Source: an uncultured virus (IMG/VR IMGVR_UViG_2663763407_000004)
Lineage: Duplodnaviria; Heunggongvirae; Uroviricota; Caudoviricetes
Reading direction: 5' to 3' (one strand)
IMG/VR virus record: IMGVR_UViG_2663763407_000004
Location: 1-64,000 of that record
Length of the DNA stretch: 64,000 nucleotides
The position numbers and the translations under genes were made by a program. Shown one piece after another: positions 10,884 through 62,139 of the stretch. Each line of letters starts with the position of its first letter. Within the stretch, counting starts at the first letter, position 1. The notes beneath the pieces were generated by a model. The model was given only the letters and a program-made list of their open reading frames with translations, made no database searches and had not been told where the DNA came from.

Positions 10884-12980
10884 TTAACCTTTTAACCTTT
10901 TTCGAGTTTGCATCAATTGCTGCTGCTTAACAGATAGCTCAAGCATTGAGTCAATGCGTTGTTTATCCTTATAATCTACAGGAAACATATAAACATGATG
11001 TATAATCATTTCTTTCAATATCCGTATGCAAACCGGGTTACCCTGAAGTTTACTTACAGCATAGGTAATTGAGTCGATATCCAACCGCCTCTTAAACTGA
11101 AGTTGGATTGCTTGCTTCAGTAAAATCTCAGCAGGGGTAGGCTCTTCACCACCAATTTCATTGTAAATTTCCGATGCTTCTTTCGAGCCAATGGATGATG
11201 CTATTTTTCTTATGACACCATTAATTACTCCATATGTCATATGTAAAAAGAATTTAGTAGCTTCTTTCTTTATTTGTTCATCAGTAAAGTTGGGATTTTC
11301 ACTTAATGTTACTTCAACTAATTTTACAACTTCATGTTTCGCTATATCTGAAAGACAAATGAAATAATTTAAGAATCGTAATCCAGTTTCAGAACCATTC
11401 ACTGTTAAGTTAAGGAGAGTATCTCTTGTCAAGGTAGCATGTCTATTGCGAACGATCTGACCAGCAATTTCCATACCTTTAAAAGTTTTGTTAATTTTTG
11501 CTAAAATATCATTTTCTTCAAACTCACCTAGCTCATTTGCATTATGTTCTATTCTATCGAGTAACTGATGATGATTTTTTCTTTCTTCTCTAACCTCCCT
11601 TTGCTCCATGATTAAGTCAGGGATTTGAGCAATAAATGCACTTAAAAATGTTAGTTGTGTTGTTGATAGCACCGCTGGTTTTTGGTCGGCAAACAGGCAA
11701 GAAAGAGTAGACTTTATTGACTCCAGAACCCATTTATCTTTGGTGTGGTGAGTAACAAAAACCAATATATTTGCATAATCCTCTCTGTGAAGATTGCTCA
11801 ATATTACTTTGGTATTTTCACAAACATTAGTATCTGTTGAATAAGATTCTGCTATTTTTTTTGCAGTAAAAAAGTAGTAAAGATATGGGTATTTGAATTC
11901 TGTTTTACCGTTTTTCAATGTTAGTATGGAATTAGATCTTAACCTTCCGATGACAGTATTTTCATCAACACCAAGATATATTTTTGAATAATGATCAAAA
12001 AATTCGTTTAACTCTCGAGTATTGAGTCCATCTTGATTTAAATGAATAGCCCATGCAAGCTCTGTTAATACGTTTAAATAGCGGTCAACTTCATTTTTAG
12101 GAATGCCTGAGCTATCAAATGCCTGATAAACAAGCTGCTGGTAACAATGACCATGTGATGTCAATTCAAGATTTTGCTGAGTATATGCCTCAAACATTTG
12201 TAATAAAATAAGGACATAGATAGGCTTTGGAGGAACTATATTTTTCCTAATAATAGCATCAAGTCTAGAGTTAAAATCATCACACTCCTCAAAAAGAGTC
12301 TCCTCTGATATTGATTCTTCTACCCCAAGGGAGACCCATTTCTCAACTATTTCAGCTCTCTTCTGATGCCCAAAACCGCGTAGTTCAAACTGCTTATAGT
12401 TGTTAAGTTCTGGAATCTCTGCTGTTATCAAAATAAAGGATGAATTACATGTTATAATAATATAGTTAAATTTTTCTGCTAAAGATGAAAGAAAGAATGC
12501 TCGAAATTTAATGTTTAGGCTAATATGGTCTAAATCATCAATAAGAATAGCTGTTTTACCGCTTATCAGATACTCATCAAATGTCACGTTAGAGTATTGT
12601 TCTTTCAAAGTATCTTCAAAGCATTTGGCCAATTCGGAACTCTTGATGTTTCTCGCATCAAAATAGATAGGTTGTATACCCAACTTAAGGAGTTCTTTAT
12701 ATGTCTGCTTTAGTAAAGTAGTCTTTCCTTGTTGCTCCTCTCCAGAAATTATATATAACCCTTCCTTTTCAAAAACAATATTTGAACTAAAAATCTTTGA
12801 AGATATTATCTTTTCATTTTTATCATAATAATCAAGAGGTTGAATATCACAAGGCACGTAGATATTTGAAAGATGAAGTTTATCTACGCTTCGGTGAGTT
12901 AAGATAACTTCTGTGTCTTCAATCCATGAAAGTATATTCTCGGTTGGCTGTATAGTTTTATCATCAACTACAGTCAGGAG
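10884..12980 (-). CDS. STAND/NACHT-like P-loop NTPase, in -1 frame relative to upstream TIR
   Basis: Walker A SGEEQQGKTT, Walker B ILIDDLD; frame stays open from the A9 tract to the stop; AT-rich. Confidence 0.8.
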   Translation of the reverse strand, partial: LLTVVDDKTIQPTENILSWIEDTEVILTHRSVDKLHLSNIYVPCDIQPLDYYDKNEKIISSKIFSSNIVFEKEGLYIISGEEQQGKTTLLKQTYKELLKLGIQPIYFDARNIKSSELAKCFEDTLKEQYSNVTFDEYLISGKTAILIDDLDHISLNIKFRAFFLSSLAEKFNYIIITCNSSFILITAEIPELNNYKQFELRGFGHQKRAEIVEKWVSLGVEESISEETLFEECDDFNSRLDAIIRKNIVPPKPIYVLILLQMFEAYTQQNLELTSHGHCYQQLVYQAFDSSGIPKNEVDRYLNVLTELAWAIHLNQDGLNTRELNEFFDHYSKIYLGVDENTVIGRLRSNSILTLKNGKTEFKYPYLYYFFTAKKIAESYSTDTNVCENTKVILSNLHREDYANILVFVTHHTKDKWVLESIKSTLSCLFADQKPAVLSTTQLTFLSAFIAQIPDLIMEQREVREERKNHHQLLDRIEHNANELGEFEENDILAKINKTFKGMEIAGQIVRNRHATLTRDTLLNLTVNGSETGLRFLNYFICLSDIAKHEVVKLVEVTLSENPNFTDEQIKKEATKFFLHMTYGVINGVIRKIASSIGSKEASEIYNEIGGEEPTPAEILLKQAIQLQFKRRLDIDSITYAVSKLQGNPVCIRILKEMIIHHVYMFPVDYKDKQRIDSMLELSVKQQQLMQTRKRLKG

Positions 12981-13435
12981 TTTTTTTTTGAGTCATCTAA
13001 GGACGTTATAGCTTTTCTTATCCCCTGAATCACCGTTAGCCATGCTTCATCTTCATCTTCCCATTTTGTGACTGCCAAAGCATCTTTAGGAAGTGCTTGA
13101 AATGAACCAAATGGACTATGAGCCCAGTCCGATGATCTTACAATAACGGGAATCAAAACAGCTTCCCCACGCTCATGCTTTCCAATTGCGGTTTTCACTT
13201 CAATATTTTGACAATATTCTGAAGCAAGAAAGCTAGCCGATATAAGGAATAAAATTATTTCTGCATCCCTAAGATTTTCAGATATTTCATTTTCCCAATT
13301 CTGTCCAGCTACAAGCTTTCTATCATTCCACGTCTCAATTTGACCATTTGTTTTCAATGTTGAAAGATGGTCTTCAAGAGAGTCCTTATGTGTTTCATCT
13401 TTGTGTGAGTAACTAATGAAGATTTTGACGCCCAT
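12974..13435 (-). CDS. TIR domain protein
   Basis: KIFISYSHKD, WNDRKLVAG, LISASFLASEYC..IE motifs. Confidence 0.9.
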   Translation of the reverse strand: MGVKIFISYSHKDETHKDSLEDHLSTLKTNGQIETWNDRKLVAGQNWENEISENLRDAEIILFLISASFLASEYCQNIEVKTAIGKHERGEAVLIPVIVRSSDWAHSPFGSFQALPKDALAVTKWEDEDEAWLTVIQGIRKAITSLDDSKKNS

Positions 13436-14346: not shown

Positions 14347-17300
14347 TCACTTATTAAAATACGGATTCACCCGCTCCACCGCCTGCTGTACCAGTTTATT
14401 TCTGGTTGCCATCAGTCGGTCAATTTTTTCTCTTTTCTGATCCGCTGTGAGTATCCGGTCGCGCCGCATCATTTCAATCTGGGCATTCAGTGCCTTCACT
14501 TGTTTCTGTGTCGCAGTTAGCCCCTGACGCTGCGATAATTTCCCTCTATTTTCCTCTATCAACTCACTGGCATCATCGCCCCGCCCCTGCTTACGGAAGC
14601 TATTAATGGTGCTGTTTATCTGGTTGGCTTCGGTCATCATGCGGTAAAAATCTTCGGTGAACTGGGTAGATTTGGCCGGATCGGAGCCACGGAAGAAGGA
14701 TTTAATCACCGGCATTTCATCCAACCGCATGGCCGGGGTTTCGCCGTAGTCTTTCAGGTTACGCATCAGCAAATTGGTCGCGCCCATCACATAACCACCT
14801 AGGCTGCCGGTGTAGCCCATTACAATATGATCCAGCATCTTCGATGACATATTTGTAGCCTCACCCACTTCGCGCATCAGCAGGCTGGTCTGGTCGTTAT
14901 AACGAGCACCCGCAATCAAATTGCTGTCGGCCATATTCTCAATCGGCCCACCTTTGAAGAAATCATAGTTAACATAAGCCTCGGCAATCGGCATCGCGAC
15001 TTGTGGGATAGGGTTGAATGCCATGGTTTCCATAAAGTTATGCGCCACCAGCTTACCGAATTTAGCCGCGCTATCTTTACCGCCCAGCGCCCGGACAAAT
15101 CGCTCCGGCAAGGTGCCAAACATCAAGCCGATTTCGAACGGTTTGGGGAAACGGATATGCTGATCACCAATCCAGGCATGCCAATAGGTGTCTTTATCCC
15201 AGTCCTGTAGCTCCTCATAACGCTTATCGTCCCAATTCAGCGCCATCAGTGCTAAAGAGGCTGCGGTGATCATGCCGCCGCGTTTCAGTACCTCGCGCGG
15301 GTTCTCTTTGATAGCTCGGCCTAATTTACTCAGCCCCTGCATCCGGGCGTTGAAGAACGGCAGCATATCACTCAGGTTTATCATGATATTACTGGCCCCC
15401 ATCATGCTGAAGTCCATCAAGTCGCGCGACTCAAATGCTGCCTGCGCCTTACTTTTGCCCGATTTAATGGCGGCTTCATAAGTGGCCAGCCGGTTAGCGT
15501 TTTCTGCTGCTTCACTGAGATTTTTGTATTGATGTAACCCCTGCTCGACCTTGCCCATCACCTCTTTGCTGTTGCGGACAATGGACGATTCAAACTCTTG
15601 CATTTGGCTGTCGTTGTAGCCTTTACGCCGCAGCACGCTGCGTATCGTTTTGGCCGTAGACGCGGGATCATAGACATTGGAATAACCCCCGCCGAAAGTC
15701 GCGCCAGCAAACATCATATCCACCAAGCTATCATCGGTGCGTAGGGCTTTTCTAAATCCGGCCCATGAGGCTGTCACTGGCTTAAAGCCATCTTTGTTAA
15801 TGGCCCATGAATGAATCGAGTCACGTAAGAAGTTGCGGATAATAAAATCAGGCATCGATGTGGTACTGACGGTCAGCACCTTTTTCGCCTGACGGGCGGC
15901 TTTCATAAAGATCGAGTTACTGCGCTCAAGGTCAATCATGGTAAAGGCACGATACAGTTCCGGATCATTAACCTGAACCAGCTTTTCCTGCCCATCGATA
16001 AACACCTTCACCACATCTTTGCCGATCCGCTCAAAGTCCATTTTATTCGGTGATTCAATCACCTCCAGCACACCGGTATCCGCAAGATTGACCACTGAGC
16101 GGCGCATCGCCTCGTTTTTCATTGAAGCATCGACCGATTTCGCCACGTAGTTAAACAGGTTTTCGATAGGATCCTTAATGGTCAAATCACTGCCTTTTAA
16201 CTTGCGCACGGTACTGCTCTGGTTAGCAATGCCTTTGCTGGTCCACGGCCCCTTCACCTCGCCATTTTCTGCTTCACGGTAATAAGGCAAGTACCAGGCA
16301 TCCTCCCACTGGGCGCGGCTTTCTGGGTCAATCAATCCCATATCCTGTTGTAGATCGAGAATCGACTTAATAAAGGCATCATATTTTTTCTTCTGACCGT
16401 CGAATAAAGCCTCATTACCCCGGTTAAGGGTTTTCATATAAGCAATTTCGTCGGCATTAAAGTTGTTCTCTTTGCCCTCTTTCATCAGCCGTTCTGAGCG
16501 ATGGCCGGCGATCCATTTAAAGAAGTTTTCCCGATGATTTCCCAGTCCGTCGAGAATGCCCATCAGGGCATCCTCTTTGCCAGTACCGGATTGCCGTTCA
16601 ACTATCCCCTCAGCTTTGTTATAGCGCGGTAAGCCATGCTCTAAGGTGGCGGCGGTAACAGAACCCGCTCCGGCGGCCATCCTCGCCCCAATATAGGCAG
16701 AACTACGGGCATCATTGATACCGGCGGCATCTTCGGCATATTTCAGCGGAGCCATGCCATCAAAGGTTTTGGTATTGAGTTTACGGCCGGTTTCTTTTAG
16801 CCAGGCTTTCAGTTCCGTTTTGTCTTTGCTGGTCACAGTGGCGTAGAAAGATTTAGCTTTATCCAGTCGGGTTAGCTCAACGTTAAAGCCCATCTTGCGG
16901 TTGGTTTCTGTGTCCATTGCTGGGTTGGCGGTACGGGAATAGAGGGCATCAGAGCGAGAGAAAGTATTATCAAACTCCCGCGTTCCCGGTTGTTCGCCGT
17001 CATACATGGCCGTTTTTTTGAAGCGCCCAGCGACAGTACGCAGAATATTGCGTATTTCGGTTGGGGAGATATCACTCTCATTCATGATGCCGATTTTCTT
17101 CAATGAATTTGTCAGCAGAGAAACGAAACGATCCCACATCGCCCCAAGAGCGGTAAGTTCTGATCGCTCCGCCATATGGGCCAAGAATTCATTAGCCTGC
17201 ATTTCAAGGGACTCATTACGGTAGGATTTATCAACCTCCCGCCAGACCGCCTGAATCTCCTTATTTTTACTGTCACGCGTTTGATGTAGCACGCGCATGA

Positions 17301-20300
17301 TACGGTCATATTCCACATCACCAATAACGGAAGCCAGTCCGTGGTGCGCCAAGACCTCATGACGCAATTTCGCCCGAAGCTCGCGGTCAGAAGTGATGTT
17401 ATCCGCGACCACAATCACCCGGCTCAGCTCTGGCTGATAAATGGCATGAACAGTACCGAATTCTTTCGGGATCCCGCTCGGCATCATGGCCGCTGCCTCC
17501 GCCTGAGTTTGCACCACCTTAACTTTGATTTTGGCCGCGCCATTTAACCTGCGTACCCACGCATCTGCGATGATTTGCGCTCGCCCCTGGCGCATTCCCT
17601 GAGCGGGTTTTTCACCCGCAGCGGTGTAGCCGGTATCTGAAATGACATTGCCTTTATCAATGTCAGTCCCCTGACGCGAATAGAAAGCGATACCTTTAGC
17701 GGTGGGTTTGGTTTTCAAGGTTTGGAATAGGTGATCAAATGCCTGACGCACGCCGCCGTTTAATTCAGCTTCTGTTGGATAGGCATAAGTTTCAGGGTTG
17801 GCGTGTTCGTCAGCTTTGCGCAGGTTAACCAGATAGTCGTTCGTGATACCTTTACTCTGGGCTTTATCCAGCAGGTAGCGTTCAAAGGCTCGCGCTGACA
17901 TTTCCAGTTTAGTTGTCCAATATGCTTTACTTCGCCCACTGTCCAGCAACGCAGCGCGTTCCATCATTCCACTATGGGTAACTTTATCGACGGCGCTCTT
18001 AAAGGCGTCATGCACCTCTTGCCTGACCGGATGGATGATTTCTTGCTTTTTGCCGCTGCTAAATTCATAGCGCGGACGTTTACGGTCGGTAATAAATTCG
18101 GATGAATGCTTACCGGATGCCTCGCCATGGACATCATAGGTACCAAAATAGTTATCCAATGCATGGAACCACTCATGTGCCAGTGAGCCTGCGCCATTAC
18201 CTTTGGTGAGATTGATAACCACTTGCCTAGGCTCATAATGGGCTTTGGCCCCGCCCTTACCCCGCGCGCCAAATGCCAGGCCCAATTCGCCATTCAATGA
18301 CAGCGATTTTGGCGGCACATTCAGTAATTCGGCCATATCAACCAACGAGTCATAAGCATCGTTTAATTCAGTTTGGCGGCGTGCTCCTTCAACATAGTTA
18401 CCAAACTGAACACCTCGGAAACCGAAGGCATCACTAAATTGTTCAGGCGTCACATTACCCTTACGACGCTCAATACCGGTACGTGGCTCATTGGTCGCTT
18501 TGCGTTGTTCCTCCCGAGAGACTTTGCGTAATTTATCCAGTTTGGCTTCTATTTCTGCGCGATTCTCTGCCAGATAAGCGCGTGCCTCGTTGGGTGTTTT
18601 GAAGCCCGCTTTAAGCGGCAAAACGCCCATAGCCCCTTTGTAGCCAATAAACACGCTCTTATCTGCTCGCCGGGTATAGATCTCTAACTTAGCCTGTCTA
18701 GGGACTGCTTTCCCTTTATCACTATTGAGCTGAGTCTCGATAAAGGCCTTGGCTTTGGGTAATAGTTCCGCCATGGATCCCGCTGAAATATTTGCTATCA
18801 CTCCCCTTGGCGTGACCAGCTGATACAGTGTTCTCCCACCGGGATAGCTCTTGCCGTCAAAATAGGTGTAATGACCGGAGTGAACTGAGTACTTCGATGC
18901 TTCGGCCATCTGTTCAGGTTTAAACTGTGAGATTAAATCAACAGTATCGGCGGCAGATCGTAAGGAGGACTTACTGCGAAAAATGGTTTTTATATCGTCA
19001 ACACTCGCATGGCTATTGATAATAGAACTCGCTAAATCACGAACACCCTTAACCTGTTCAGCCCACTGATTAAGCTTATAAGGGGAGCCCGGTTTGGTCG
19101 GGATAAACGAGCGCAATGCTGCAAGCAATGCCAGTTTTTCTGGTTCAATGCCATTTTCATGCATTTTGCTGTAATCAGGGTGTGGGAAGAGTTTCGAAAG
19201 AGGCTGTTTCTTAATTTCTTCGATATCATGGTCGGCTTTCAGTGACTCTGCCAATTGGCCCCATTTATGCTTCGCCGCTCCCTTAAGTTCCTCACCAAAA
19301 TCATCAATTTTTGCGTCCCTGTTTTTGGCTTGACCCACTGGCTCAGGTACGGGTAAGCGGACACCGTACCCCTTTCCTACCGGTTCAATCGTGGCACCCG
19401 GCATCCTGCCCCATTTGGAATACTTAGCGACTTTCTCACTGTTGAAGGGTTTGCCGAGATGCAGTCTTAATTCACCGACTTGCTGCTCACCAGACGCCAC
19501 AACGCCCTCATTAGAGGGCGCTGTTTTCGTATTTTCCGTTGTTGGCTCAGGTGGCAATCGCACACCAAAACCATCACCAACCGGTTCAATCACCGCCCCC
19601 GGCATCTTGGCCCATTTCGTGAATCTGGCTACTTTTTCATTGGGGAATGGCTTGCCGTGGTGCAATCTCAACTCGCCTTGTGGAGTTCCTGATTCAATAT
19701 GCCCCTCTTTGGTTGATGCAATACCGCTATCAGTTGATTTTGCAGGTAATCGCACGCCAAAACCGTCGCCTACTGGCTCAATAACAGCACCTGGCATTTT
19801 TGCCCACTTAGTGAATCTGGCCACTTTCTCATTAGGGAATGGCTTACCGTGGTGCAATCTCAACTCGCCAAGAGTTTCACCTTTTGCATAAGCTTCGGTA
19901 CGTGCATCTATAGGGACACCACCAGCACGCTGACGCTGATCGGTAATCGCTGTTTCAGACTGCGCTCCCATCGCCTCAGTAAAGCGGCGCACATCTTTAC
20001 GCTGCCCTCCCTCAAACTGCGGTGCTTTCCCTGACTGAACATCATCAGGATTAACTACAGGTCCATCAGCAAAGATGATGTTTTTATCCGTAATGGCCTG
20101 CGGATCCGTTTGCCCATCGTAGGTATGGGTTTCTCTGACCGCACCTTGCTGCTCTGCCTGCTCCCTCGGCAAATACACTTGCCCACGAGTCTGTTCCCCG
20201 GCTGTGAATTGTGGCGCGGAACCCGCTTGAGGTTCATCACCTTGAATTGGTCCTGGCATTGGGAAACCTTCACCCGGATGAATATTACCGGGAGCTGGCA

Positions 20301-21984
20301 GGCGTGGAGTTCGCTGCGCCCGAATCTGATCAGCCTGCTGAAGTATCGACAACTCATCAGGTGTAAAGCCCTGCTCACCCGACTCCATTTGTTGCTGAAT
20401 CAGATCTTGTGCGGTCGGCTGTGCTTCTGGCTCTGCAAGTGAACGTTGAACATCGCTATCATCAGCAAAGCCTTGTACCCGAGGATCCTGACGTAAGTAA
20501 GCTGGGGTATCGCGGAAATCATCAATTTGAGAGTTGGGTACACCATTTTCACTGACTGAGTTTTGTTGTACTGCCACTTCAGGGGAACTCTGATTTTCTG
20601 CCTGCGGTGTAACTTCCTGCTGTTGGGAGGGATCGATATTTTCAGATACGGGTGAACCGTCAGCATTAACGGGGTTTTCTGATGTTGCTTCTGCTGCTGA
20701 CCTGCGGCCACGAATTCCACCGATAGTTCCCGCTGCGCCACCAATGCCAGCCCCTAGCACTGCATTATTAGCACCGGTTTCTACCACCCCTTTCATTGGG
20801 TCTATTTTCTGACCTGCGGTGTCAATTAACTGCTGATTTTGAACATAGCGCTGGGCTGCACCCTGAGTGAACTCAGTTCCACCTTCCGCCGCCGCACCTA
20901 ATGAAGCCCCGGAAATAACACCAGAAGCCGCCCCTTTTTTGGTAAGCAAATTCAATAAGGTATGATCGCCCAATGTAGAAGCTGCAATGTTTATCGCTAG
21001 CATGCGCGGATCTACCGTCACACTGCTGGCGGCCTGTTCTGCAACCTGATTGCGAGCTAGCGTTAATTTTTGTGTATCTGACAGTGCTGAGTTATTTGGA
21101 TCCGAATCTATGGTTGAAAAGGCTTTTTGAAAAGTAGGGCTTTGCACTAACTGATCAAAGGGCAATGCATTGATCTCATCGCGCATTTCATTACCAGAAG
21201 AACCTTGTGCAGTACCTGCCATTATTCCGACAAATCCAGATTTTTGAGCCTGAATGCCCGCTTTAATTGCTGTTTCTTTTGCCGTTTCTCTCGCTACAAA
21301 TTCAGGTAACAGATTCTTAAGTTTCTGAAAAGTAAGTTCCTCAATACTTTTAGCGATGACCTTACCACCAAGTTTGGCAAATCCACCCACAGAGAACAGC
21401 TGAGAAAGTGTGGGTACTGCATTCATTACCCATGCATCTTTATCAAAAGCACCAGCACCAAGCTTCAGATTATCTTGAGAATCAGTTTCAATGAAAGGCA
21501 TCTCTGCTGCCTGCTTAGCCCCCTCACTGTAATTAGACTTTATTTTATCAGTGACATCACCAGCTAAATTACTTATGCCAGCTAAGGCACTAACCCCAAC
21601 TTTACCGAGTGCTTTAGGTAAATCATTACCAGGATTTTTTCGAATTACATTCAACAACTCAGGATCAACATCCAGTGATATCCTTGGTTTTTCGGTGGCT
21701 AATCTGTCCAATTTTCTATCAGCACCAACAACCATTTGGGATAATCCGTGAATAATTTCAGAAGGTGCTGTCGCTGCTGCGAAAGCAACATCTTTTAAAC
21801 CTACACTAGGGTCATTCTCCTGCGGAGCTTTTGACTGCCGCCCAGCAGCTTCACGCGCAGCCCTGACGGCACCCCAGTCGAAACCAGTATTAGCATTCTC
21901 ACCTGGTTGCTGGATATTGAGTGTTTCACGATTACTGTTATTGGTTTGCTCTTCTGGACGTTGTTGTTGCGGATCGTAAGTCAT
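14347..21984 (-). CDS. Giant polyvalent virion/ejection protein (~2545 aa)
   Basis: Last gene of late operon; HEWFH and HEVLAH zincin-like motifs; C-terminus resembles LPD38; start ATGA-coupled to rha stop. Confidence 0.8.
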   Translation of the reverse strand: MTYDPQQQRPEEQTNNSNRETLNIQQPGENANTGFDWGAVRAAREAAGRQSKAPQENDPSVGLKDVAFAAATAPSEIIHGLSQMVVGADRKLDRLATEKPRISLDVDPELLNVIRKNPGNDLPKALGKVGVSALAGISNLAGDVTDKIKSNYSEGAKQAAEMPFIETDSQDNLKLGAGAFDKDAWVMNAVPTLSQLFSVGGFAKLGGKVIAKSIEELTFQKLKNLLPEFVARETAKETAIKAGIQAQKSGFVGIMAGTAQGSSGNEMRDEINALPFDQLVQSPTFQKAFSTIDSDPNNSALSDTQKLTLARNQVAEQAASSVTVDPRMLAINIAASTLGDHTLLNLLTKKGAASGVISGASLGAAAEGGTEFTQGAAQRYVQNQQLIDTAGQKIDPMKGVVETGANNAVLGAGIGGAAGTIGGIRGRRSAAEATSENPVNADGSPVSENIDPSQQQEVTPQAENQSSPEVAVQQNSVSENGVPNSQIDDFRDTPAYLRQDPRVQGFADDSDVQRSLAEPEAQPTAQDLIQQQMESGEQGFTPDELSILQQADQIRAQRTPRLPAPGNIHPGEGFPMPGPIQGDEPQAGSAPQFTAGEQTRGQVYLPREQAEQQGAVRETHTYDGQTDPQAITDKNIIFADGPVVNPDDVQSGKAPQFEGGQRKDVRRFTEAMGAQSETAITDQRQRAGGVPIDARTEAYAKGETLGELRLHHGKPFPNEKVARFTKWAKMPGAVIEPVGDGFGVRLPAKSTDSGIASTKEGHIESGTPQGELRLHHGKPFPNEKVARFTKWAKMPGAVIEPVGDGFGVRLPPEPTTENTKTAPSNEGVVASGEQQVGELRLHLGKPFNSEKVAKYSKWGRMPGATIEPVGKGYGVRLPVPEPVGQAKNRDAKIDDFGEELKGAAKHKWGQLAESLKADHDIEEIKKQPLSKLFPHPDYSKMHENGIEPEKLALLAALRSFIPTKPGSPYKLNQWAEQVKGVRDLASSIINSHASVDDIKTIFRSKSSLRSAADTVDLISQFKPEQMAEASKYSVHSGHYTYFDGKSYPGGRTLYQLVTPRGVIANISAGSMAELLPKAKAFIETQLNSDKGKAVPRQAKLEIYTRRADKSVFIGYKGAMGVLPLKAGFKTPNEARAYLAENRAEIEAKLDKLRKVSREEQRKATNEPRTGIERRKGNVTPEQFSDAFGFRGVQFGNYVEGARRQTELNDAYDSLVDMAELLNVPPKSLSLNGELGLAFGARGKGGAKAHYEPRQVVINLTKGNGAGSLAHEWFHALDNYFGTYDVHGEASGKHSSEFITDRKRPRYEFSSGKKQEIIHPVRQEVHDAFKSAVDKVTHSGMMERAALLDSGRSKAYWTTKLEMSARAFERYLLDKAQSKGITNDYLVNLRKADEHANPETYAYPTEAELNGGVRQAFDHLFQTLKTKPTAKGIAFYSRQGTDIDKGNVISDTGYTAAGEKPAQGMRQGRAQIIADAWVRRLNGAAKIKVKVVQTQAEAAAMMPSGIPKEFGTVHAIYQPELSRVIVVADNITSDRELRAKLRHEVLAHHGLASVIGDVEYDRIMRVLHQTRDSKNKEIQAVWREVDKSYRNESLEMQANEFLAHMAERSELTALGAMWDRFVSLLTNSLKKIGIMNESDISPTEIRNILRTVAGRFKKTAMYDGEQPGTREFDNTFSRSDALYSRTANPAMDTETNRKMGFNVELTRLDKAKSFYATVTSKDKTELKAWLKETGRKLNTKTFDGMAPLKYAEDAAGINDARSSAYIGARMAAGAGSVTAATLEHGLPRYNKAEGIVERQSGTGKEDALMGILDGLGNHRENFFKWIAGHRSERLMKEGKENNFNADEIAYMKTLNRGNEALFDGQKKKYDAFIKSILDLQQDMGLIDPESRAQWEDAWYLPYYREAENGEVKGPWTSKGIANQSSTVRKLKGSDLTIKDPIENLFNYVAKSVDASMKNEAMRRSVVNLADTGVLEVIESPNKMDFERIGKDVVKVFIDGQEKLVQVNDPELYRAFTMIDLERSNSIFMKAARQAKKVLTVSTTSMPDFIIRNFLRDSIHSWAINKDGFKPVTASWAGFRKALRTDDSLVDMMFAGATFGGGYSNVYDPASTAKTIRSVLRRKGYNDSQMQEFESSIVRNSKEVMGKVEQGLHQYKNLSEAAENANRLATYEAAIKSGKSKAQAAFESRDLMDFSMMGASNIMINLSDMLPFFNARMQGLSKLGRAIKENPREVLKRGGMITAASLALMALNWDDKRYEELQDWDKDTYWHAWIGDQHIRFPKPFEIGLMFGTLPERFVRALGGKDSAAKFGKLVAHNFMETMAFNPIPQVAMPIAEAYVNYDFFKGGPIENMADSNLIAGARYNDQTSLLMREVGEATNMSSKMLDHIVMGYTGSLGGYVMGATNLLMRNLKDYGETPAMRLDEMPVIKSFFRGSDPAKSTQFTEDFYRMMTEANQINSTINSFRKQGRGDDASELIEENRGKLSQRQGLTATQKQVKALNAQIEMMRRDRILTADQKREKIDRLMATRNKLVQQAVERVNPYFNK
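19351..19869 (-). repeat. Three 42-aa (126-bp) internal repeats in the giant protein
   Basis: GELRLHHGKPFPNEKVARFTKWAKMPGAVIEPVGDGFGVRLP at 19744-19869 and 19552-19677, diverged copy at 19351-19476. Confidence 0.9.
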
Positions 21985-22556
21985 TTGGCGCTCCAAATTT
22001 CAGACGTAAAAAAAGCCTCGTTGTGAGGCTGTTCGATAGTATTAATAAGGTCCGGTTGCGCGAGATCTTTAATCCGTTCATATTCGAGATTAAGTCTGTG
22101 TTTTTCCTTCTTTCGCGCATTCATCAATCGACTACCGATAGTCCCCTTAACCTTCGAAACATTTTCTTTTATGGCAAACAAATGCTCCGCTTCTTCGCCG
22201 ATTGCAAGACGGCGCTTTAGTTGCTCTGTCATCCAGTTGAAAGCATTGATATACGCCTCTTTAATCGCTGTCGCAGGTTTACCGGTAAATCCCATAATTA
22301 ACATCATGCAACCATCACGAGTTATATTAAACATCGGCTGCATATCGCCATTTTTATCAATGAAATCAGTGGGCGCAAAATTGCGCTGGGTAAAATCATC
22401 GGAACATTTCAGGTTTCGAATTGCCCTTAGAACATCTTTGTGACGCTTGCTAAAGCATTGAGCAACCTTAAGTGAGGTGGTTATCACTTTGTTCTCTGAC
22501 ATAACCACCATGTCTCGAAAATCAAATTGTGGGATGACTACCATTTGTTTGTTCAT
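21981..22556 (-). CDS. rha: Rha family phage regulatory protein
   Basis: TTSLKVAQCFSKRHKDVLRAI...LIMGFTG..A..KEAYINAFN. Confidence 0.85.
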   Translation of the reverse strand: MNKQMVVIPQFDFRDMVVMSENKVITTSLKVAQCFSKRHKDVLRAIRNLKCSDDFTQRNFAPTDFIDKNGDMQPMFNITRDGCMMLIMGFTGKPATAIKEAYINAFNWMTEQLKRRLAIGEEAEHLFAIKENVSKVKGTIGSRLMNARKKEKHRLNLEYERIKDLAQPDLINTIEQPHNEAFFTSEIWSAK

Positions 22557-46875: not shown

Positions 46876-47856
46876 TCATTTACTCTTATTGAATAGATTA
46901 TCCCTATGCCACTTAAGATATTTCATTGATCTATTATTAATTTTTATTTTTATATCTGTTTTTATATTGAGTTCTTCTATTATTTCACTAATTAATGGCT
47001 CGTCTCCGATAAGCATTTCCCCCTGATCGGAAAAACTAATAAAACCCTTATCGAACAATACATCCACATGCGCGGCCAGCATCAAACCATTATATCGATC
47101 TAATCTCTCTTTATCAGAGCTTTCTCGCCACGGTTTTATGTGACTAGCACGGATCATTTCAGGCATACCTATGCCGGTAACTGGGCATTTGGGGTAGAGT
47201 TCTATTAATTTTTTTCTAAAACCACCTTGACCTACACGTGCATCAACTAAAAGTTTCTTGGTAGTTTCAGGAATATTATTTGAGTCAAGAACCTCTTGCA
47301 CATCCTGATAAATATCATCGACTCCCAATGATTCAGCTAATTGCGATTCCCTTACTGACATTGAAATCTTATCAGATATTTTTAATATATTCTTGCTTTC
47401 ACTCAATTTGAGCAAAAGCATACCGAGCTCTTCACTCAGTTTCGTTAAATAGAACTTTTGATTTCCGCCTCCGTCAGTACGAATTGGCGAGTATTTATTT
47501 TCAAGAAGCGGCGAGATTTCTTTTATTTTATCTTTAGGTTTGAATGGAGTCAGTGGATAACTGAAGTCCACGTTAACTTTTTGAAGTGGTTTTTCAAATC
47601 CATTTAAATCTGGAGATCTTACAACTTGATACGATGTAGAGGTAGCAACACCTAGAGCACCAATCTCTTGTTTGGCGAATGAAAAAATTATATCACCAAG
47701 TTTCACGTCCCGGATATTTGTATAAGTTTGATTATTAGAACCATCCTTATTGGTATAAGGGCAGCGTAAAAAACCACCACTTCGTTCAGTTTTATATAGC
47801 TTATTATGATTTACCCAGAAAAATTGCCGTGCCGATGTATCACTCTTCATAATCAT
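46876..47856 (-). CDS. EVE/PUA-like + HNH endonuclease (putative modification-dependent restriction)
   Basis: N-terminal FFWVNH..GGFL..P..GDIIFS; C-terminal RVGQG.FR..CPVTG..ASHIKPW..NGL.L..HVD.LFDKG; AT-rich. Confidence 0.75.
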   Translation of the reverse strand: MIMKSDTSARQFFWVNHNKLYKTERSGGFLRCPYTNKDGSNNQTYTNIRDVKLGDIIFSFAKQEIGALGVATSTSYQVVRSPDLNGFEKPLQKVNVDFSYPLTPFKPKDKIKEISPLLENKYSPIRTDGGGNQKFYLTKLSEELGMLLLKLSESKNILKISDKISMSVRESQLAESLGVDDIYQDVQEVLDSNNIPETTKKLLVDARVGQGGFRKKLIELYPKCPVTGIGMPEMIRASHIKPWRESSDKERLDRYNGLMLAAHVDVLFDKGFISFSDQGEMLIGDEPLISEIIEELNIKTDIKIKINNRSMKYLKWHRDNLFNKSK

Positions 47857-48815: not shown

Positions 48816-49463
48816 TCAATACTCCAGCAGCCGGTTAACTGCCTGTTCCATTTCATACTCGTTATCAAAGTGCTGGCCTAATGTCTCATTCCAGATAACA
48901 CCGGCCACGCCTTTATAAATACGGTCAAAAGCCCCCTGATCCATATTCACGAATGCGATACTCCAACGCTGTTTCAATGTGCCACCCTCTGGGTTTGGCA
49001 TCAGGTCATAGAATCCGGCTTTGATCATGACGTGGTTGAAGTAGGCTGCATCAGTCTTTACAGCCTCCCCATCAAACCTCTTCTGGCGCTGCCGGATTAC
49101 CCTATCTAATACTGCTTGAGCAATAGACTTTGTAACATTCTCATAGAGTTCAGGATCTCCAGCGGCACTACCCACAGCTTTAGCCACCTCATGGGCTATC
49201 CATTCCTCTGGCGCACTAACAAAGGTCCAATCCGGTACCCAATATGAGAAACCCAGCTCCAACAATTTCCAGAATTTACGGTGATGCTTCAGGTTGCGCC
49301 GGTCGCCAATTGGACTCATTGAGATTGGTGTGCCCGCAGGCACCCCTTTCATCGTTTCGCGATCATGATCAGTGGCGTACTTGATTCCACCACCAGGTAA
49401 CAGGACGCCCAGCACCTCAGTCTTTTTCTTTCTCGGGGACTTAGTTCGCTGAGTTGTTGTCAT
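48816..49463 (-). CDS. DUF1367 family protein
   Basis: RNLKHHRKFWKLLELGF, SIAFVNMDQ..F..IY. Confidence 0.8.
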   Translation of the reverse strand: MTTTQRTKSPRKKKTEVLGVLLPGGGIKYATDHDRETMKGVPAGTPISMSPIGDRRNLKHHRKFWKLLELGFSYWVPDWTFVSAPEEWIAHEVAKAVGSAAGDPELYENVTKSIAQAVLDRVIRQRQKRFDGEAVKTDAAYFNHVMIKAGFYDLMPNPEGGTLKQRWSIAFVNMDQGAFDRIYKGVAGVIWNETLGQHFDNEYEMEQAVNRLLEY

Positions 49464-50125
49464 ACGGCCCCCATTAAGGACAGCCGCTCGGCCTCTCTAC
49501 GGATCTGGGCTAAAAATGCTTCGCCAGTGGCAAGTAACTGCTCACGGCTGATATAGCTAATGGCTGGGCCACGCCATTCCTTATCGAAAATGGCAATAGC
49601 CGCACCAAACCCAGCATTACAGGCCACCTGAGTGCTATCTTCGGGACGGAACCATGCAGGTACTTCAAAACCAATTCTGCCGCGAATGAAAGCGATATGG
49701 TCAGCTTCTTCAGGCCACCACACCTCTGACGTGGCCGCTTTGGTCAAATAGACATAGCGACCTCCGCGCTGCCGCATTTCGGAGGTATAAGCCATGATGT
49801 GCCGCATACCAGTGATATATTGCCCTTCATGCTTCTTCGCCGTGCTGTAGGGAGGATTGGCGAAAGCGGCACCATTCAACTCGGTCAGTTTCGCTGCCCA
49901 ATCTTGAGTGAGCGCATTATCTTCCGCAGTGTAATAAGCGGGTGTTTTTGCATTATCACCATCACTGAACAGATCCAGGACTAACGGGCCAAACATCGCA
50001 TTGATACCCCAGAACAGAGCATCTGGCGTGCGCCACTGATCACCAATCAATTTCAACTTATGCGTTGGGGCGGATTTGAGAGCTGCCAGATCATGAACAT
50101 ATTGGGTATTGGAGAAATCAATCAT
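49460..50125 (-). CDS. Phage N6-adenine DNA methyltransferase
   Basis: DQWRTP, LDLF, NPPYS. Confidence 0.88.
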   Translation of the reverse strand: MIDFSNTQYVHDLAALKSAPTHKLKLIGDQWRTPDALFWGINAMFGPLVLDLFSDGDNAKTPAYYTAEDNALTQDWAAKLTELNGAAFANPPYSTAKKHEGQYITGMRHIMAYTSEMRQRGGRYVYLTKAATSEVWWPEEADHIAFIRGRIGFEVPAWFRPEDSTQVACNAGFGAAIAIFDKEWRGPAISYISREQLLATGEAFLAQIRREAERLSLMGAV

Positions 50126-50474
50126 GCAATGGCTCCCCATGACCAGAATTTGGAACCAGGCGATAAAACCAAACACGCTTACCGCTATCCTCATTGCGGA
50201 CAGTTCTAACCTGTTTCACCAGCCCATGACGGACAGGATTAATTTCACGCAGGCGTGCGCTTATAGCGGTCTGGGTATCACCTTCACCGGGGAACATCTG
50301 GGATAATAATTTTTCGAGATCGCGCAGGGTCCGCCAGTCAGCACCACTGGCGGCACTGATCACGCGGTTTAACTGGCTGTTTGCATCACTTAACCGACCA
50401 GCCAGACGCATAGATCTTATATCGTTGTTAATACCAACCCTTTCGGCGTTGGGTACGTGTGGCTTGATCACCAT
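50118..50474 (-). CDS. Hypothetical wHTH-like protein
   Basis: WRTLRDL..DTQTAISARLRE. Confidence 0.55.
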   Translation of the reverse strand: MVIKPHVPNAERVGINNDIRSMRLAGRLSDANSQLNRVISAASGADWRTLRDLEKLLSQMFPGEGDTQTAISARLREINPVRHGLVKQVRTVRNEDSGKRVWFYRLVPNSGHGEPLHD

Positions 50475-58748: not shown

Positions 58749-60548
58749 ATGACCACCCAAGCAGTAACAACCAGTAATCTCCCGCCCGCCGTGGTTGGGT
58801 TGAATATTGACGAACCAACGTGGAACGCGCTGAAAAACAGTATTTACCCTGGCGCTAAAGATGATTCAGTCATCATGGCGGTGAGTTATTGCCGCGCCCG
58901 CCAGTTAGATCCACTGATGAAACCCGTTCATTTAGTTCCTATGAGCGTGAAAGATGCGGTAAGTGGTAAATATGAAATGCGTGATGTGGTGATGCCCGGT
59001 GTTGGGCTCTATCGCATACAGGCAGACCGCTCTGGTAACTATGCCGGTGCACAGGAACCCGAATTTGGCCCTGACCTCACACAAGTTTTTAACGGAGTAG
59101 AAATTACTTTCCCTCAGTGGTGCAAATACACCCTGAGCAAACTCATGCCTAACGGCACTATCGTGGAGTTCAGTGCGAAGGAATATTGGCTGGAGAACTA
59201 TGCCACCGCGGGCCGCGATACTCAGGCACCCAATGCCATGTGGAAAAAACGGCCCTATGGGCAACTCGCCAAATGCTTTGATGATGAAACTGAAATACTC
59301 ACTGATGAAGGGTTTCAGCTATTTTCTAAAGTAACAGGGAAAATATTACAAGTAACAACTAATGGTTTGGAATCATCCTCTGCAATTCCATTTGTGCAGC
59401 CTTATAGCGGCTCAATGGTAACAGCGAATGGTAGTCGCTTGAATTTTAGCGTAACACCAAATCACGATATGTTAACGAACAACGGAAAAGTAGAGGCAGC
59501 AACACTATACCAAAAAGCTACGACAGATAGTTCTAAGTGGGCAATTCCGAGATCTGTTGTTTCAAATCGTCCTGATTCGAATATTAGTGATCAACTTTTA
59601 TACTTGGTTGGGTACCTATTAGCCGATGGCTACCACTCTGGATACCATCAAATCAGGGTTTCCGTATCTAGGCTCTATAAAATAGAAGCTTTATTTTCTT
59701 TGGGATTGCATAGCAAAGTATCAGTAAAAAAAGACGCTGGCAGAGAGGCTGTGACCGGCAAAAGAATCATTAAAACCATCAGGGATAAGAAGAGTTTTAC
59801 GTATGATTTTAGCTTAGTGTCAAAATATATGACGGCCGATAAGCGTGTTCATCCTGAATGGATTTTATCATTATCATCTCGGCAGGCAAAAATTGTTGTT
59901 GATTCCCTTTTAGAATTTGATGGATCTCACAATGGCTCTGTACGCCGCTTACATCAACGAAATACCAATGTCATATCTGCATTTGAGTTATTAGCCATTC
60001 AAGCTGGTTATTCAATAAGTAGCCCTTCCGTACAAAAAAGCGATATTGGCTCGTGCTCATTATTCACCCTTTCTGAAACAACCACTTCACCAGTAGTGAA
60101 AGGCCTCAGTAAAAACTCATCATCATTAGTAATAACTCAAAACACCTCCGGCAAAGTATGGTGCGTAACAGTACCATCAGGTGTCATTGTTGTGCGTCGC
60201 CACGGGTTATCTATGCTCTGCGGTAATTGCGCCGAAGCCCAGGCATTGCGTAAAGGGTGGCCGGAAATTGGTCAGCAGCCAACAGCAGAAGAAATGGAAG
60301 GTAAAAGTCTTGATGTGAATGAAGGTAAAGAACACAGCCAAGGCAGCCAGCAACCAAGCCAGCCGCAGGCACTACCAGAATATAGCGCGGAACAATTTCA
60401 ACGCGCACTTGCTGACTGGACAACGCTGATCAACAAGGGCAAGAAAACTGCCGCGCAAATCATCAACACCATCGAAAGTAAATACACCCTCACCTCGGCA
60501 CAAATCAAAACTATCGAATATCTGGAGGCAGAAGATGCAAATCATTAA
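58749..60548 (+). CDS. bet: Bet/RecT single-strand annealing protein containing an intein
   Basis: YCRARQLDPLMKPVH, GLYRIQADRSG, MWKKRPYGQLAK|C..N|CAEAQALRKGWP. Confidence 0.9.
   Translation: MTTQAVTTSNLPPAVVGLNIDEPTWNALKNSIYPGAKDDSVIMAVSYCRARQLDPLMKPVHLVPMSVKDAVSGKYEMRDVVMPGVGLYRIQADRSGNYAGAQEPEFGPDLTQVFNGVEITFPQWCKYTLSKLMPNGTIVEFSAKEYWLENYATAGRDTQAPNAMWKKRPYGQLAKCFDDETEILTDEGFQLFSKVTGKILQVTTNGLESSSAIPFVQPYSGSMVTANGSRLNFSVTPNHDMLTNNGKVEAATLYQKATTDSSKWAIPRSVVSNRPDSNISDQLLYLVGYLLADGYHSGYHQIRVSVSRLYKIEALFSLGLHSKVSVKKDAGREAVTGKRIIKTIRDKKSFTYDFSLVSKYMTADKRVHPEWILSLSSRQAKIVVDSLLEFDGSHNGSVRRLHQRNTNVISAFELLAIQAGYSISSPSVQKSDIGSCSLFTLSETTTSPVVKGLSKNSSSLVITQNTSGKVWCVTVPSGVIVVRRHGLSMLCGNCAEAQALRKGWPEIGQQPTAEEMEGKSLDVNEGKEHSQGSQQPSQPQALPEYSAEQFQRALADWTTLINKGKKTAAQIINTIESKYTLTSAQIKTIEYLEAEDANH
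59274..60227 (+). mobile_element. Intein (318 aa) with LAGLIDADG homing endonuclease
   Basis: Cys1 CFDDETEILT; block B VTPNHDML; YLVGYLLADG and SLLEFDGS; block F VWCVTV; terminal GN followed by Cys+1. Confidence 0.92.
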
Positions 60549-62139
60549 TGTCCAGCAAGGCACGCCAGAATGGCACGCCTTACGCAGTCGCCATTTCACT
60601 GCCAGCGAAGCCCCGGTAATGATGGCAGCCTCCAGTAAAATGCGCCGCGATGAATTGCTGAACATGAAGGCCACCGGCTCGGAACGGGAAATCAGCGATT
60701 GGGTACAAACCAACTTGTTCGATAAAGGCCACGCGCAAGAAGCCACCGCGCGGGTCATCGTAGAATCTATGATCGGTACCGAATTATTCCCTGCAACCGC
60801 CATCGATGATGATGGCTATTTGTTGGCTTCCTTTGATGGCATGACCATGATGGAAGATGTGTTGTTTGAACACAAAATGTGGAATGCCACACTGGCGCTG
60901 GCGGTGAAAAATAAAGACTTGCCGCCAGAGTATTACTGGCAGTTAGAACAGCAACTTTTAGTGAGTGAGTCCGAAAAGGTCATTTTTGTGGTATCAGATG
61001 GCACTGAGGATAACTTTGTGTGGATGGAGTATTTACCGGTACCTGGTCGCCGTGAAGCTTTGATGGCGGGTTGGCAGCAATTTGAACAGGATTTGAACGG
61101 TTACACAGCCCCTGAGATAAAAGACATACCGCAAGGTAAAGCCTTAATGCGCCTCCCTGCCCTATTGGTGGAGATAGAGGGCGCGGTAAAAGAATCAAAC
61201 CTGACTGTTTACCAGAATCAAGCGTTGGCTTTTATTCAATCCATCAACACTAATCTGGTGACCGATCAGGACTTCGCTGACGCAGAAGAAACCGTTAAGT
61301 TCTGTGAAAAAGCAGAGAAAGAGCTGGATCTGATTAAACAACAGGCACTGTCTAAGACTGAGCAGATTGATCTACTTTTCCGCACCATTGATACCTTGCG
61401 CAATGAAATGCGAAACAAACGGCTAGACCTGTCAAAACTCGTTAAGTTGCGCAAAGAAGCTATTCGCCTTGAAATACTGAATAAGGTAAAAGCCGCTCTT
61501 GCTGAGCACATTGCCAGTATCAATAAACAGTTGGCTATTGTCACTCTACCTACTATCCCGGCTGATTTTGCCACTGCTATCAAAGGCAAGAAAACCCTCA
61601 CCTCTTTGAAGAGTGCAGCCAACGATGAACTGGCACGCGCCAAGATAGCTGCTAACCAATTAGGTGAGAAATATCAGTCCAACTTAGTGCTATTTGCTGA
61701 TATTGAACCGGCTTATAAAAATCTGTTCGCTGACATCAACCAGATAATTGCCCTTGAGCACGAACATCTGGCGCTGATGATTGATCAACGCATTACCAGG
61801 CAAAAACAGATTGAGGAACAGCACAGACAGCAGGAAGCATTGCGGCTTGATGAATTGAAAAAACAACAACAGGCAGTGCCAGTGTCCACTACAGAAACAG
61901 TCACCGCAAGTACGGATGCAACAGTCCATCAGTCGTTACACCCTGCGGGATCGGTTAACTTCCCTAAACAACTGGGCGGATCGGTAAATACGCCACTAAC
62001 AGACAAGCCAGCTAATTGGATTGCCCAAATTGATGCTGATTTAGTGGCGGCAGGAATTGAGCTTACTACTGAAACAGTTAACCGCCTGTACAACGCGGTA
62101 AAAGCTGGCCGGATCCGCTATTTCTCTATCACGCAGTAA
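60535..62139 (+). CDS. YqaJ-like exonuclease with long coiled-coil extension
   Basis: QGTPEWHALR..FTASEA, ASFDG, FEHK, YYWQLEQQ. Confidence 0.88.
   Translation: MQIINVQQGTPEWHALRSRHFTASEAPVMMAASSKMRRDELLNMKATGSEREISDWVQTNLFDKGHAQEATARVIVESMIGTELFPATAIDDDGYLLASFDGMTMMEDVLFEHKMWNATLALAVKNKDLPPEYYWQLEQQLLVSESEKVIFVVSDGTEDNFVWMEYLPVPGRREALMAGWQQFEQDLNGYTAPEIKDIPQGKALMRLPALLVEIEGAVKESNLTVYQNQALAFIQSINTNLVTDQDFADAEETVKFCEKAEKELDLIKQQALSKTEQIDLLFRTIDTLRNEMRNKRLDLSKLVKLRKEAIRLEILNKVKAALAEHIASINKQLAIVTLPTIPADFATAIKGKKTLTSLKSAANDELARAKIAANQLGEKYQSNLVLFADIEPAYKNLFADINQIIALEHEHLALMIDQRITRQKQIEEQHRQQEALRLDELKKQQQAVPVSTTETVTASTDATVHQSLHPAGSVNFPKQLGGSVNTPLTDKPANWIAQIDADLVAAGIELTTETVNRLYNAVKAGRIRYFSITQ

Follow-up and report, generated by a model that had tools for sequence, protein, structure and literature searches.

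We analyzed a 64,000-nucleotide stretch of DNA from an uncultured virus (IMG/VR record IMGVR_UViG_2663763407_000004, positions 1 to 64,000; hereafter, the window) and found that its bet gene, which encodes an annealase of the Bet/RecT type, is interrupted by an element that is very probably a LAGLIDADG-type intein, predicted to be removed by class-1 splicing to give a 281-amino-acid (aa) Bet and likely to spread selfishly by cutting and converting the empty bet alleles of related phages. The observations behind this reading are the precise insertion, the presence of empty alleles, the conservation of key residues, the attachment of the family to one site, and the conflict between trees, and the Hint and LAGLIDADG folds are taken from a structural model.

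The insert in bet and its relatives

The open reading frame of bet (58749-60548, + strand; window numbering) encodes 599 aa. Its N-terminal part was matched by TIGR01913 (Bet) of NCBIfam with 105.6 bits (cut-off, 76.95), and the N-extein by PF03837 (RecT) of Pfam with an E value of 3e-22, which, together with the RAD52-family fold and the adjoining exonuclease gene, places the host protein among the Redβ-type annealases. A preliminary description of this DNA had claimed that a 318-aa in-frame insert splits Bet at GQLAK/CAEAQALR (the slash marks the insertion point) and that its removal gives a normal 281-aa protein. Translation of 59274-60227 bore out the former claim, as the segment is stop-free, in frame and 318 aa long (CFDDETEILT...LSMLCGN), and it is AT-rich, with a GC content of 39.6% compared with 50.9% and 48.6% in the exteins. 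The latter was borne out by a natural empty allele, L017, which encodes a 281-aa Bet with an N-terminal part (175 aa) and a C-terminal part (106 aa) that are each 100% identical to the exteins of the window. Among 93 loci related to the N-extein, the insert was present in 4 and the K-C motif was uninterrupted in 88, with one locus (L036) lacking the motif at the expected place. Two independent runs provided a complete filled allele on a single contig (X17) and a contig with the exact 59273/60228 joint (X5). RNA splicing as the origin of the X5 joint, from which the 954 nucleotides (nt) are missing, was rejected, as 34 further differences identify the contig as an empty allele. The absence of the insert from homologues and the precision of its junctions are as expected of a class 1 intein.

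The motifs named in the preliminary description were found as described, with Cys1, a TxxH block B (T61-P-N-H64), N318 after Gly317, Cys+1, and two LAGLIDADG-like helices carrying the nuclease motifs LLADG (D118) and LEFDG (D216). In an AlphaFold (AF2) model of the insert, which had a predicted local distance difference test score of 96.1, helices 106-118 and 202-216 end in these two acids, as in LAGLIDADG endonucleases, whose fold the model matches. The top 10 rows of a Foldseek search with the model were all endonuclease-bearing inteins (best E value, 8e-12), and the matches included PI-SceI, PI-PfuI, and I-DmoI. Structural comparison gave a VIA Z of 19.2 for TliVMA (root-mean-square deviation, 5.2; 282 aligned) and of 13-16.5 for mini-inteins, the best of which was the class-3 AceL NrdHF intein (Z, 16.5; root-mean-square deviation, 2.5; 138 aligned), and the predicted model has the Hint fold. 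Furthermore, full-length sequence homologues of the insert were found in 294 phage records, in unrelated host proteins and at 24-27% identity. Among the matches listed were ribonucleotide reductase, thymidylate synthase, and nucleotidyltransferase genes, namely, those with inserts in NrdA of Salmonella/Shigella phages, in the thymidylate synthase of Corynebacterium phage P1201 (annotated as "contains hypothetical intein"), and in a mycobacteriophage nucleotidyltransferase; these differ from the Bet intein in that the host proteins and sites are unrelated. Inteins in the nucleotidyltransferase and thymidylate synthase are discussed in PMC5050341.

Some results weigh against the identification as an intein. 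The hidden Markov model search for Hint and LAGLIDADG domains that had been proposed as a check did not deliver the call, as no Pfam family, and hence neither Hint nor LAGLIDADG, matched the insert at E ≤ 1 and NCBIfam gave only a sub-threshold match to intein_Nterm (E, 0.093); LAGLIDADG_3 weakly matched 1 of 76 aligned members (E, 0.073). A phmmer search against PDB sequences returned chance matches only, and a PHROGs search returned one weak ribonucleotide reductase match. Intein identity therefore rests on the fold and on the homology to inserts in other hosts. The lack of a Pfam intein match would also suit an ordinary inserted Bet domain or an assembly artefact, but there is practically no likelihood of this, because it is already refuted by the empty alleles with their identical exteins, the intein fold matches, and the independent contigs, including the filled allele on the single contig of X17, and the insert belongs to a 90% identity cluster of 76 members. 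Taken together, the fold, the motifs, and the empty alleles support the claim that Bet contains a LAGLIDADG intein.

The insert is also common in protein databases. It matched 320 protein clusters (90% identity), and among the matches listed, 120 of 120 start with Cys and have Cys+1 directly after them, at the same Bet helix site; in a 50% identity library, there were 127 matches at E ≤ 1e-30. The Bet clusters numbered 5493 when those of intein length were excluded, although this figure and the 320 come from different searches and do not represent a frequency. From 249 retrieved proteins, 229 contained a full-length copy, and 11 of these, in large non-annealase hosts, were set aside to leave 218 copies, whose annealase hosts were assigned from the flanking sequence and, for subsets, checked with Pfam (two of the checked proteins had no Pfam match). 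C1, H64, and C297 are invariant in the 218 copies, all of which have a terminal Asn or Gln and a Cys or Ser at +1. The termini are GN in 194, HQ in 12, GQ in 5, and other in 7, with a penultimate Gly in 199 and C316 in 204. A terminal Gln was observed in 18 copies (His-Gln in 12), for example, P0022, P0023, P0026-P0033, and P0044, and some of their exteins are identical to those of Gly-Asn alleles. Named carriers are Yersinia intermedia, Y. frederiksenii, Aeromonas caviae, A. veronii, and Rhodococcus ruber, besides metagenomic Microcoleus and Thermaerobacter bins, and all carriers are labelled Bet, RecT, or hypothetical. One 466-aa cluster member labelled Y. frederiksenii (P0495) diverges from the intein at its C-terminus and is apparently frameshifted.

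With respect to class, the insert has the class 1 residues C1, T61, H64, N318, and C+1 at the positions that call for Cys or Ser at 1, Thr and His in block B, Asn or Gln at the end, and Cys, Ser, or Thr at +1. The penultimate His and the block-F Asp or His, which are usual but not obligatory, are replaced by Gly317 and Cys297, and this may affect the efficiency of splicing. A penultimate Gly is, however, reported to be common among phage class-1 inteins (PMC5050341), so that Gly317 does not exclude class 1 membership. The class-1 intein in the recombination directionality factor (RDF) of mycobacteriophage Bethlehem, which also has a penultimate Gly, splices fully, and a Gly-to-His change slows its splicing (PMC5050341); it shares with the Bet intein its phage origin, class, and penultimate Gly, and differs in its RDF host. 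The invariance of C297 and the best mini-intein match to a class-3 intein could suggest that the block-F cysteine acts as an extra branch point, in a class-3-like chemistry despite Cys1. Such chemistry is improbable, since class 3 is defined by the triad Trp(B12)-Cys(F4)-Thr(G5) together with the lack of a nucleophile as first residue (PMC5050341), whereas the Bet intein has M66 instead of Trp and C316 instead of Thr, and all 218 copies have Cys1.

Insertion site, splicing, and homing

The empty allele was modelled as well; the model matches structures of Redβ, LiRecT, and RAD52 and has the junction in the middle of a helix (169-185). Sequence mapping of empty Bet to solved structures was without success, and the A2 profile alone reached Redβ. 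In that alignment, W165 pairs with W143 and the alignment ends at L151, so that the register beyond L151 is an ungapped extension, by which K175/C+1 would correspond to Redβ H153/K154 and R183 to R161. Redβ W143, H153, K154, and R161 are reported to hydrogen-bond the template strand (PMC9512822), and W165, K175, C176, and R183 of Bet do not vary among 30 empty alleles. As the DNA-gripping helix is interrupted at this site, it is reasonable on structural grounds to suppose that the precursor would be unable to anneal DNA until spliced.

In the proposed mechanism, Cys1 would undergo an N-S shift aided by T61 and H64, followed by transfer to Cys+1 and cyclization of Asn318 without the help of a penultimate His. 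With 318 aa inserted into the helix that forms the groove floor, the unspliced precursor would be inactive. Upon co-infection or prophage induction, the endonuclease would cut the empty K/C junction, and the break would be repaired from the filled copy, with co-conversion of a short flank, by the phage Bet/Exo and/or by host RecA. The site may persist because it hardly varies, is under functional constraint, and supplies the Cys nucleophile. Repair during homing could plausibly be carried out by the Bet/Exo of the phage itself, because the gene of a YqaJ/RecE-like exonuclease overlaps the end of bet; short conversion tracts are compatible with such repair but not diagnostic of it.

An insertion site within the DNA-gripping helix might also suit a domesticated switch, in which conditional (e.g., redox-sensitive) splicing gates Bet activity and phage recombination, and mycobacterial inteins, those of DnaB and RecA, have been reported to splice conditionally. 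The junctions contain four cysteines (C1, C297, C316, and C+1), with C316-G-N-C+1 forming a CxxC across the C-terminal junction, and C297 and C316 are kept in 218 and 204 of the 218 copies, respectively. C297 and C316 are, however, also present in 10 and 4 of the 11 relatives in other hosts, several of which have Ser+1, so that they look like family traits. Moreover, the distribution is patchy, with 4 of 93 loci filled, and an intact nuclease and conflicting trees are what a parasite would be expected to show. We found no sign that splicing is regulated and regard the switch as having a low probability.

Homing, the mode of spread suggested in the preliminary description, is supported by comparative genomics. 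In a tree comparison over 208 hosts, 35 of 58 supported intein splits conflicted with the N-extein tree, compared with 3 of 29 in an internal control that compared the Hint part with the nuclease part. N-exteins were <75% identical in 14 of 58 pairs whose inteins are at least 90% identical, and one pair (P0007 and P0029) has N-exteins of 100% identity and inteins of 56% identity. Within filled/empty pairs of the Yersinia-like set, sequence differences are largely confined to ~100 bp at the site. Counted in order over the distal upstream 380 bp, the proximal 100 bp, the next 30 bp, and the distal downstream 280 bp, they amount to 0/10/2/0 between L015 (filled) and L018 (empty), 2/9/2/0 between the window (filled) and L017 (empty), and 0/12/4/17 between L020 and L021. 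The site-proximal 70 bp are exactly common to five of six filled alleles, whereas empty alleles vary there. The filled/empty pattern is that expected of homing with short co-conversion, and, as far as can be judged from sequence comparison, homing is likely to be ongoing. Both catalytic acids are kept in 211 of the 218 annealase-hosted copies. L014 contains a second intein allele (39 differences), which has other proximal flanks. Between it and the intein of the window, the nonsynonymous (dN) and synonymous (dS) divergences were 0.014 and 0.144 for the intein and 0.020 and 0.217 for its nuclease part, resulting in a dN/dS of about 0.1 for the intein from this one pair.

On the other side, the dN/dS comes from a single pair, a catalytic acid is missing in 7 of the 218 copies, and conversion tracts can be mimicked by ordinary prophage mosaic recombination, with L020 needing one crossover. 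The intein may thus no longer home, its filled and empty alleles being shuffled only by ordinary phage recombination, as lambdoid prophages are mosaic, L014 and L020 have flanking blocks unlike those of the window, and the direction of exchange is not readable from pairs alone. This is unlikely, however, considering that two crossovers would have had to fall close to the site, one on each side, in both the window/L017 and the L015/L018 background, that the proximal 70 bp are shared by filled alleles and variable in empty ones as described above, and that the nuclease region has a low dN relative to dS.

Copies in Mgm101-like annealases and at a shifted site

The family was also found in three proteins with a match to PF06420 (Mgm101), P0151, P0193, and P0220, at NALMRC/CKD, and the inteins nearest to these copies are Bet-hosted, at 48-52% identity. 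The site motif is present in 104 of 120 intein-free Mgm101 matches, and the site corresponds to C194/C195 of yeast Mgm101, between R193 and K196. R193 and K196 are reported to bind single-stranded DNA and to be equal to RAD52 R153/R156 (PMC13110880), and LiRecT K206/S214 to be equal to RAD52 T148/R156 (PMC9772228). From the motif, Bet K175 can be inferred to be LiRecT K206; if so, the Mgm101 site would be on the same helix, about six residues further on. Alignment of the Bet and Mgm101 profiles by hhalign indicated no similarity (probability, 0.2), and the correspondence of the helices hence rests on the published structure comparisons. The site of a RecT protein, P0123, would likewise be three residues further on. 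In this single sequence, Val replaces the usual +1 Cys and the intein is three residues downstream, before Ser (KKVAE/SQAIR), and its nearest inteins (60% and 57% identity) are at the standard site.

The Mgm101-hosted inteins nest among Bet-hosted ones both in a FastTree tree of 229 rows and in an IQ-TREE tree of 35 chosen rows (clade support, 100), and a jump between annealase families is probable. In an approximately unbiased (AU) test, a single clade of all 26 Bet-hosted inteins was not rejected (p = 0.072), so that the direction is not established by it; judging from the trees, transfer from Bet to Mgm101 is likely. The DNA at the Bet and Mgm101-like sites has no notable similarity (a maximum of 14 matching nt out of 30; mean, 9.2). 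The three intein-bearing Mgm101-like proteins are known as proteins alone, without genomic context, no viral contig was found for P0220, and the intein was present in none of 13 phage Mgm101-like loci, in 11 of which the site was located. These 13 viral contigs (L147-L159) encode intein-free Mgm101-like annealases, and the next gene has a PD-(D/E)XK nuclease match in 3 loci. A more far-reaching possibility, which we consider doubtful as a whole, is a lineage specialized on RAD52-superfamily annealases that would have arisen at the Bet/RecT K/C site, shifted by three codons in the P0123 host lacking that Cys, and jumped to the corresponding helix of Mgm101/Rad52-like proteins without shared target DNA, and that would home via the protein from which it splices and be redox-gated through its cysteine-rich junction.

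Prophage setting and relation to known inteins

The window also encodes repressor-like, portal, capsid, tail, and lysozyme genes of a prophage, whose nearest named relatives are in Yersinia and which is likely to be of Yersinia origin. There is no second copy of this intein family within the window. The features at the bet locus are listed in the table.

Table. Features at the bet locus of the window
Feature	Position	Strand	Basis
Bet/RecT annealase N-extein, aa 1-175, ending ...GQLAK	58749..59273	+	TIGR01913, PF03837; 100% identical to empty allele L017
Upstream flank haplotype travelling with the intein, putative co-conversion tract of ~70-100 bp	59174..59273	+	Filled/empty allele comparison
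Intein N-terminal splicing region (~aa 1-100): Cys1, block B T61/H64	59274..59573	+	Model secondary structure, fold match; boundary approximate
LAGLIDADG homing-endonuclease region (~aa 101-272), motifs ending D118-G and D216-G	59574..60089	+	Foldseek; boundary approximate
Intein C-terminal splicing region: block F VWCVTVP (Cys297), block G C316-G317-N318	60090..60227	+	Motifs, fold match
Bet C-extein, starting with Cys+1 (CAEAQALRK...)	60228..60548	+	100% identical to L017
YqaJ/RecE-like exonuclease, partner gene, overlapping the bet 3' end	60535..62139	+	PF09588; TIGR03033 below cut-off; phrog_7655

Elsewhere in the prophage, a candidate anti-phage cargo pair was observed near its end (10884-13435, - strand), consisting of a TIR-domain gene (PADLOC ThsB; E, 4e-55) and then a STAND-like nucleoside triphosphatase (PDC-S60; E, 6e-77). 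There are also a 2549-aa polyvalent protein with LPD38, LPD5, and LPD1 domains (14347-21996, -), an HNH endonuclease (46876-47856, -), and a Dam methyltransferase (49460-50194, -).

Among characterized inteins, TliVMA, PhoVMA, PI-SceI, and PI-PfuI (7qsu, 7qst, 1vde, and 1dq3) likewise have a two-motif LAGLIDADG domain splitting Hint and the Cys1...Asn/Cys arrangement, but their identity to the Bet intein is 10-18%, and the latter differs in its compact 318 aa, block-F Cys, penultimate Gly, and phage annealase host. The inteins of Mycobacterium tuberculosis RecA and Pyrococcus horikoshii RadA are likewise in homologous-recombination proteins, and their Hint fold matches the Bet intein at Z 12-13.5. 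RecA and RadA are P-loop ATPase strand-exchange proteins. The Bet host belongs to the RAD52 family of annealases and works independently of ATP (PMC13110880). In the terminase-to-Cas4 case of extein switching, one intein lineage is reported in two host families at sites sharing DNA sequence (bioRxiv 10.1101/2025.01.02.630785); the Bet/Mgm101 case also involves two host families, but the site DNA is unlike and the site is in the corresponding helix of one superfamily.

The claim that Bet is an unreported intein host held in our literature search, although sequence databases contain many copies of the insert under plain "Bet/RecT" names. No intein in Bet, RecT, or Mgm101 was found in the literature searched, and InBase, subscription journals, and supplements may hold a record. 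"RecT" is absent from the main texts of PMC5050341, PMC4760082 (with two of its three supplements), bioRxiv 10.1101/2025.01.02.630785, and PMC7765530, and the host list in the bioRxiv report contains no annealase. "Intein" is absent from the main text of the annealase surveys PMC8093625 and PMC11783212 and of PMC13110880, and intein and annealase terms co-occur, unconnected, in that of PMC7886860 and PMC12403621. Thus, the element is of a known kind of selfish element, a real LAGLIDADG intein that is likely mobile, and its host family is widespread and apparently undescribed.

The known intein hosts are thereby joined by the single-strand annealing proteins of phages, which do much of the work in recombineering and in phage mosaicism. 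It also has a practical aspect, as annealase mining for genome editing would collect 600-aa precursors, with hundreds of clusters missed by Pfam. The filled and empty alleles with identical exteins represent a natural pair with which to ask if a homing element needs the very repair protein that it interrupts, and the acquisition of new sites by inteins can be studied in the two annealase families, in which three sites are found on one helix.
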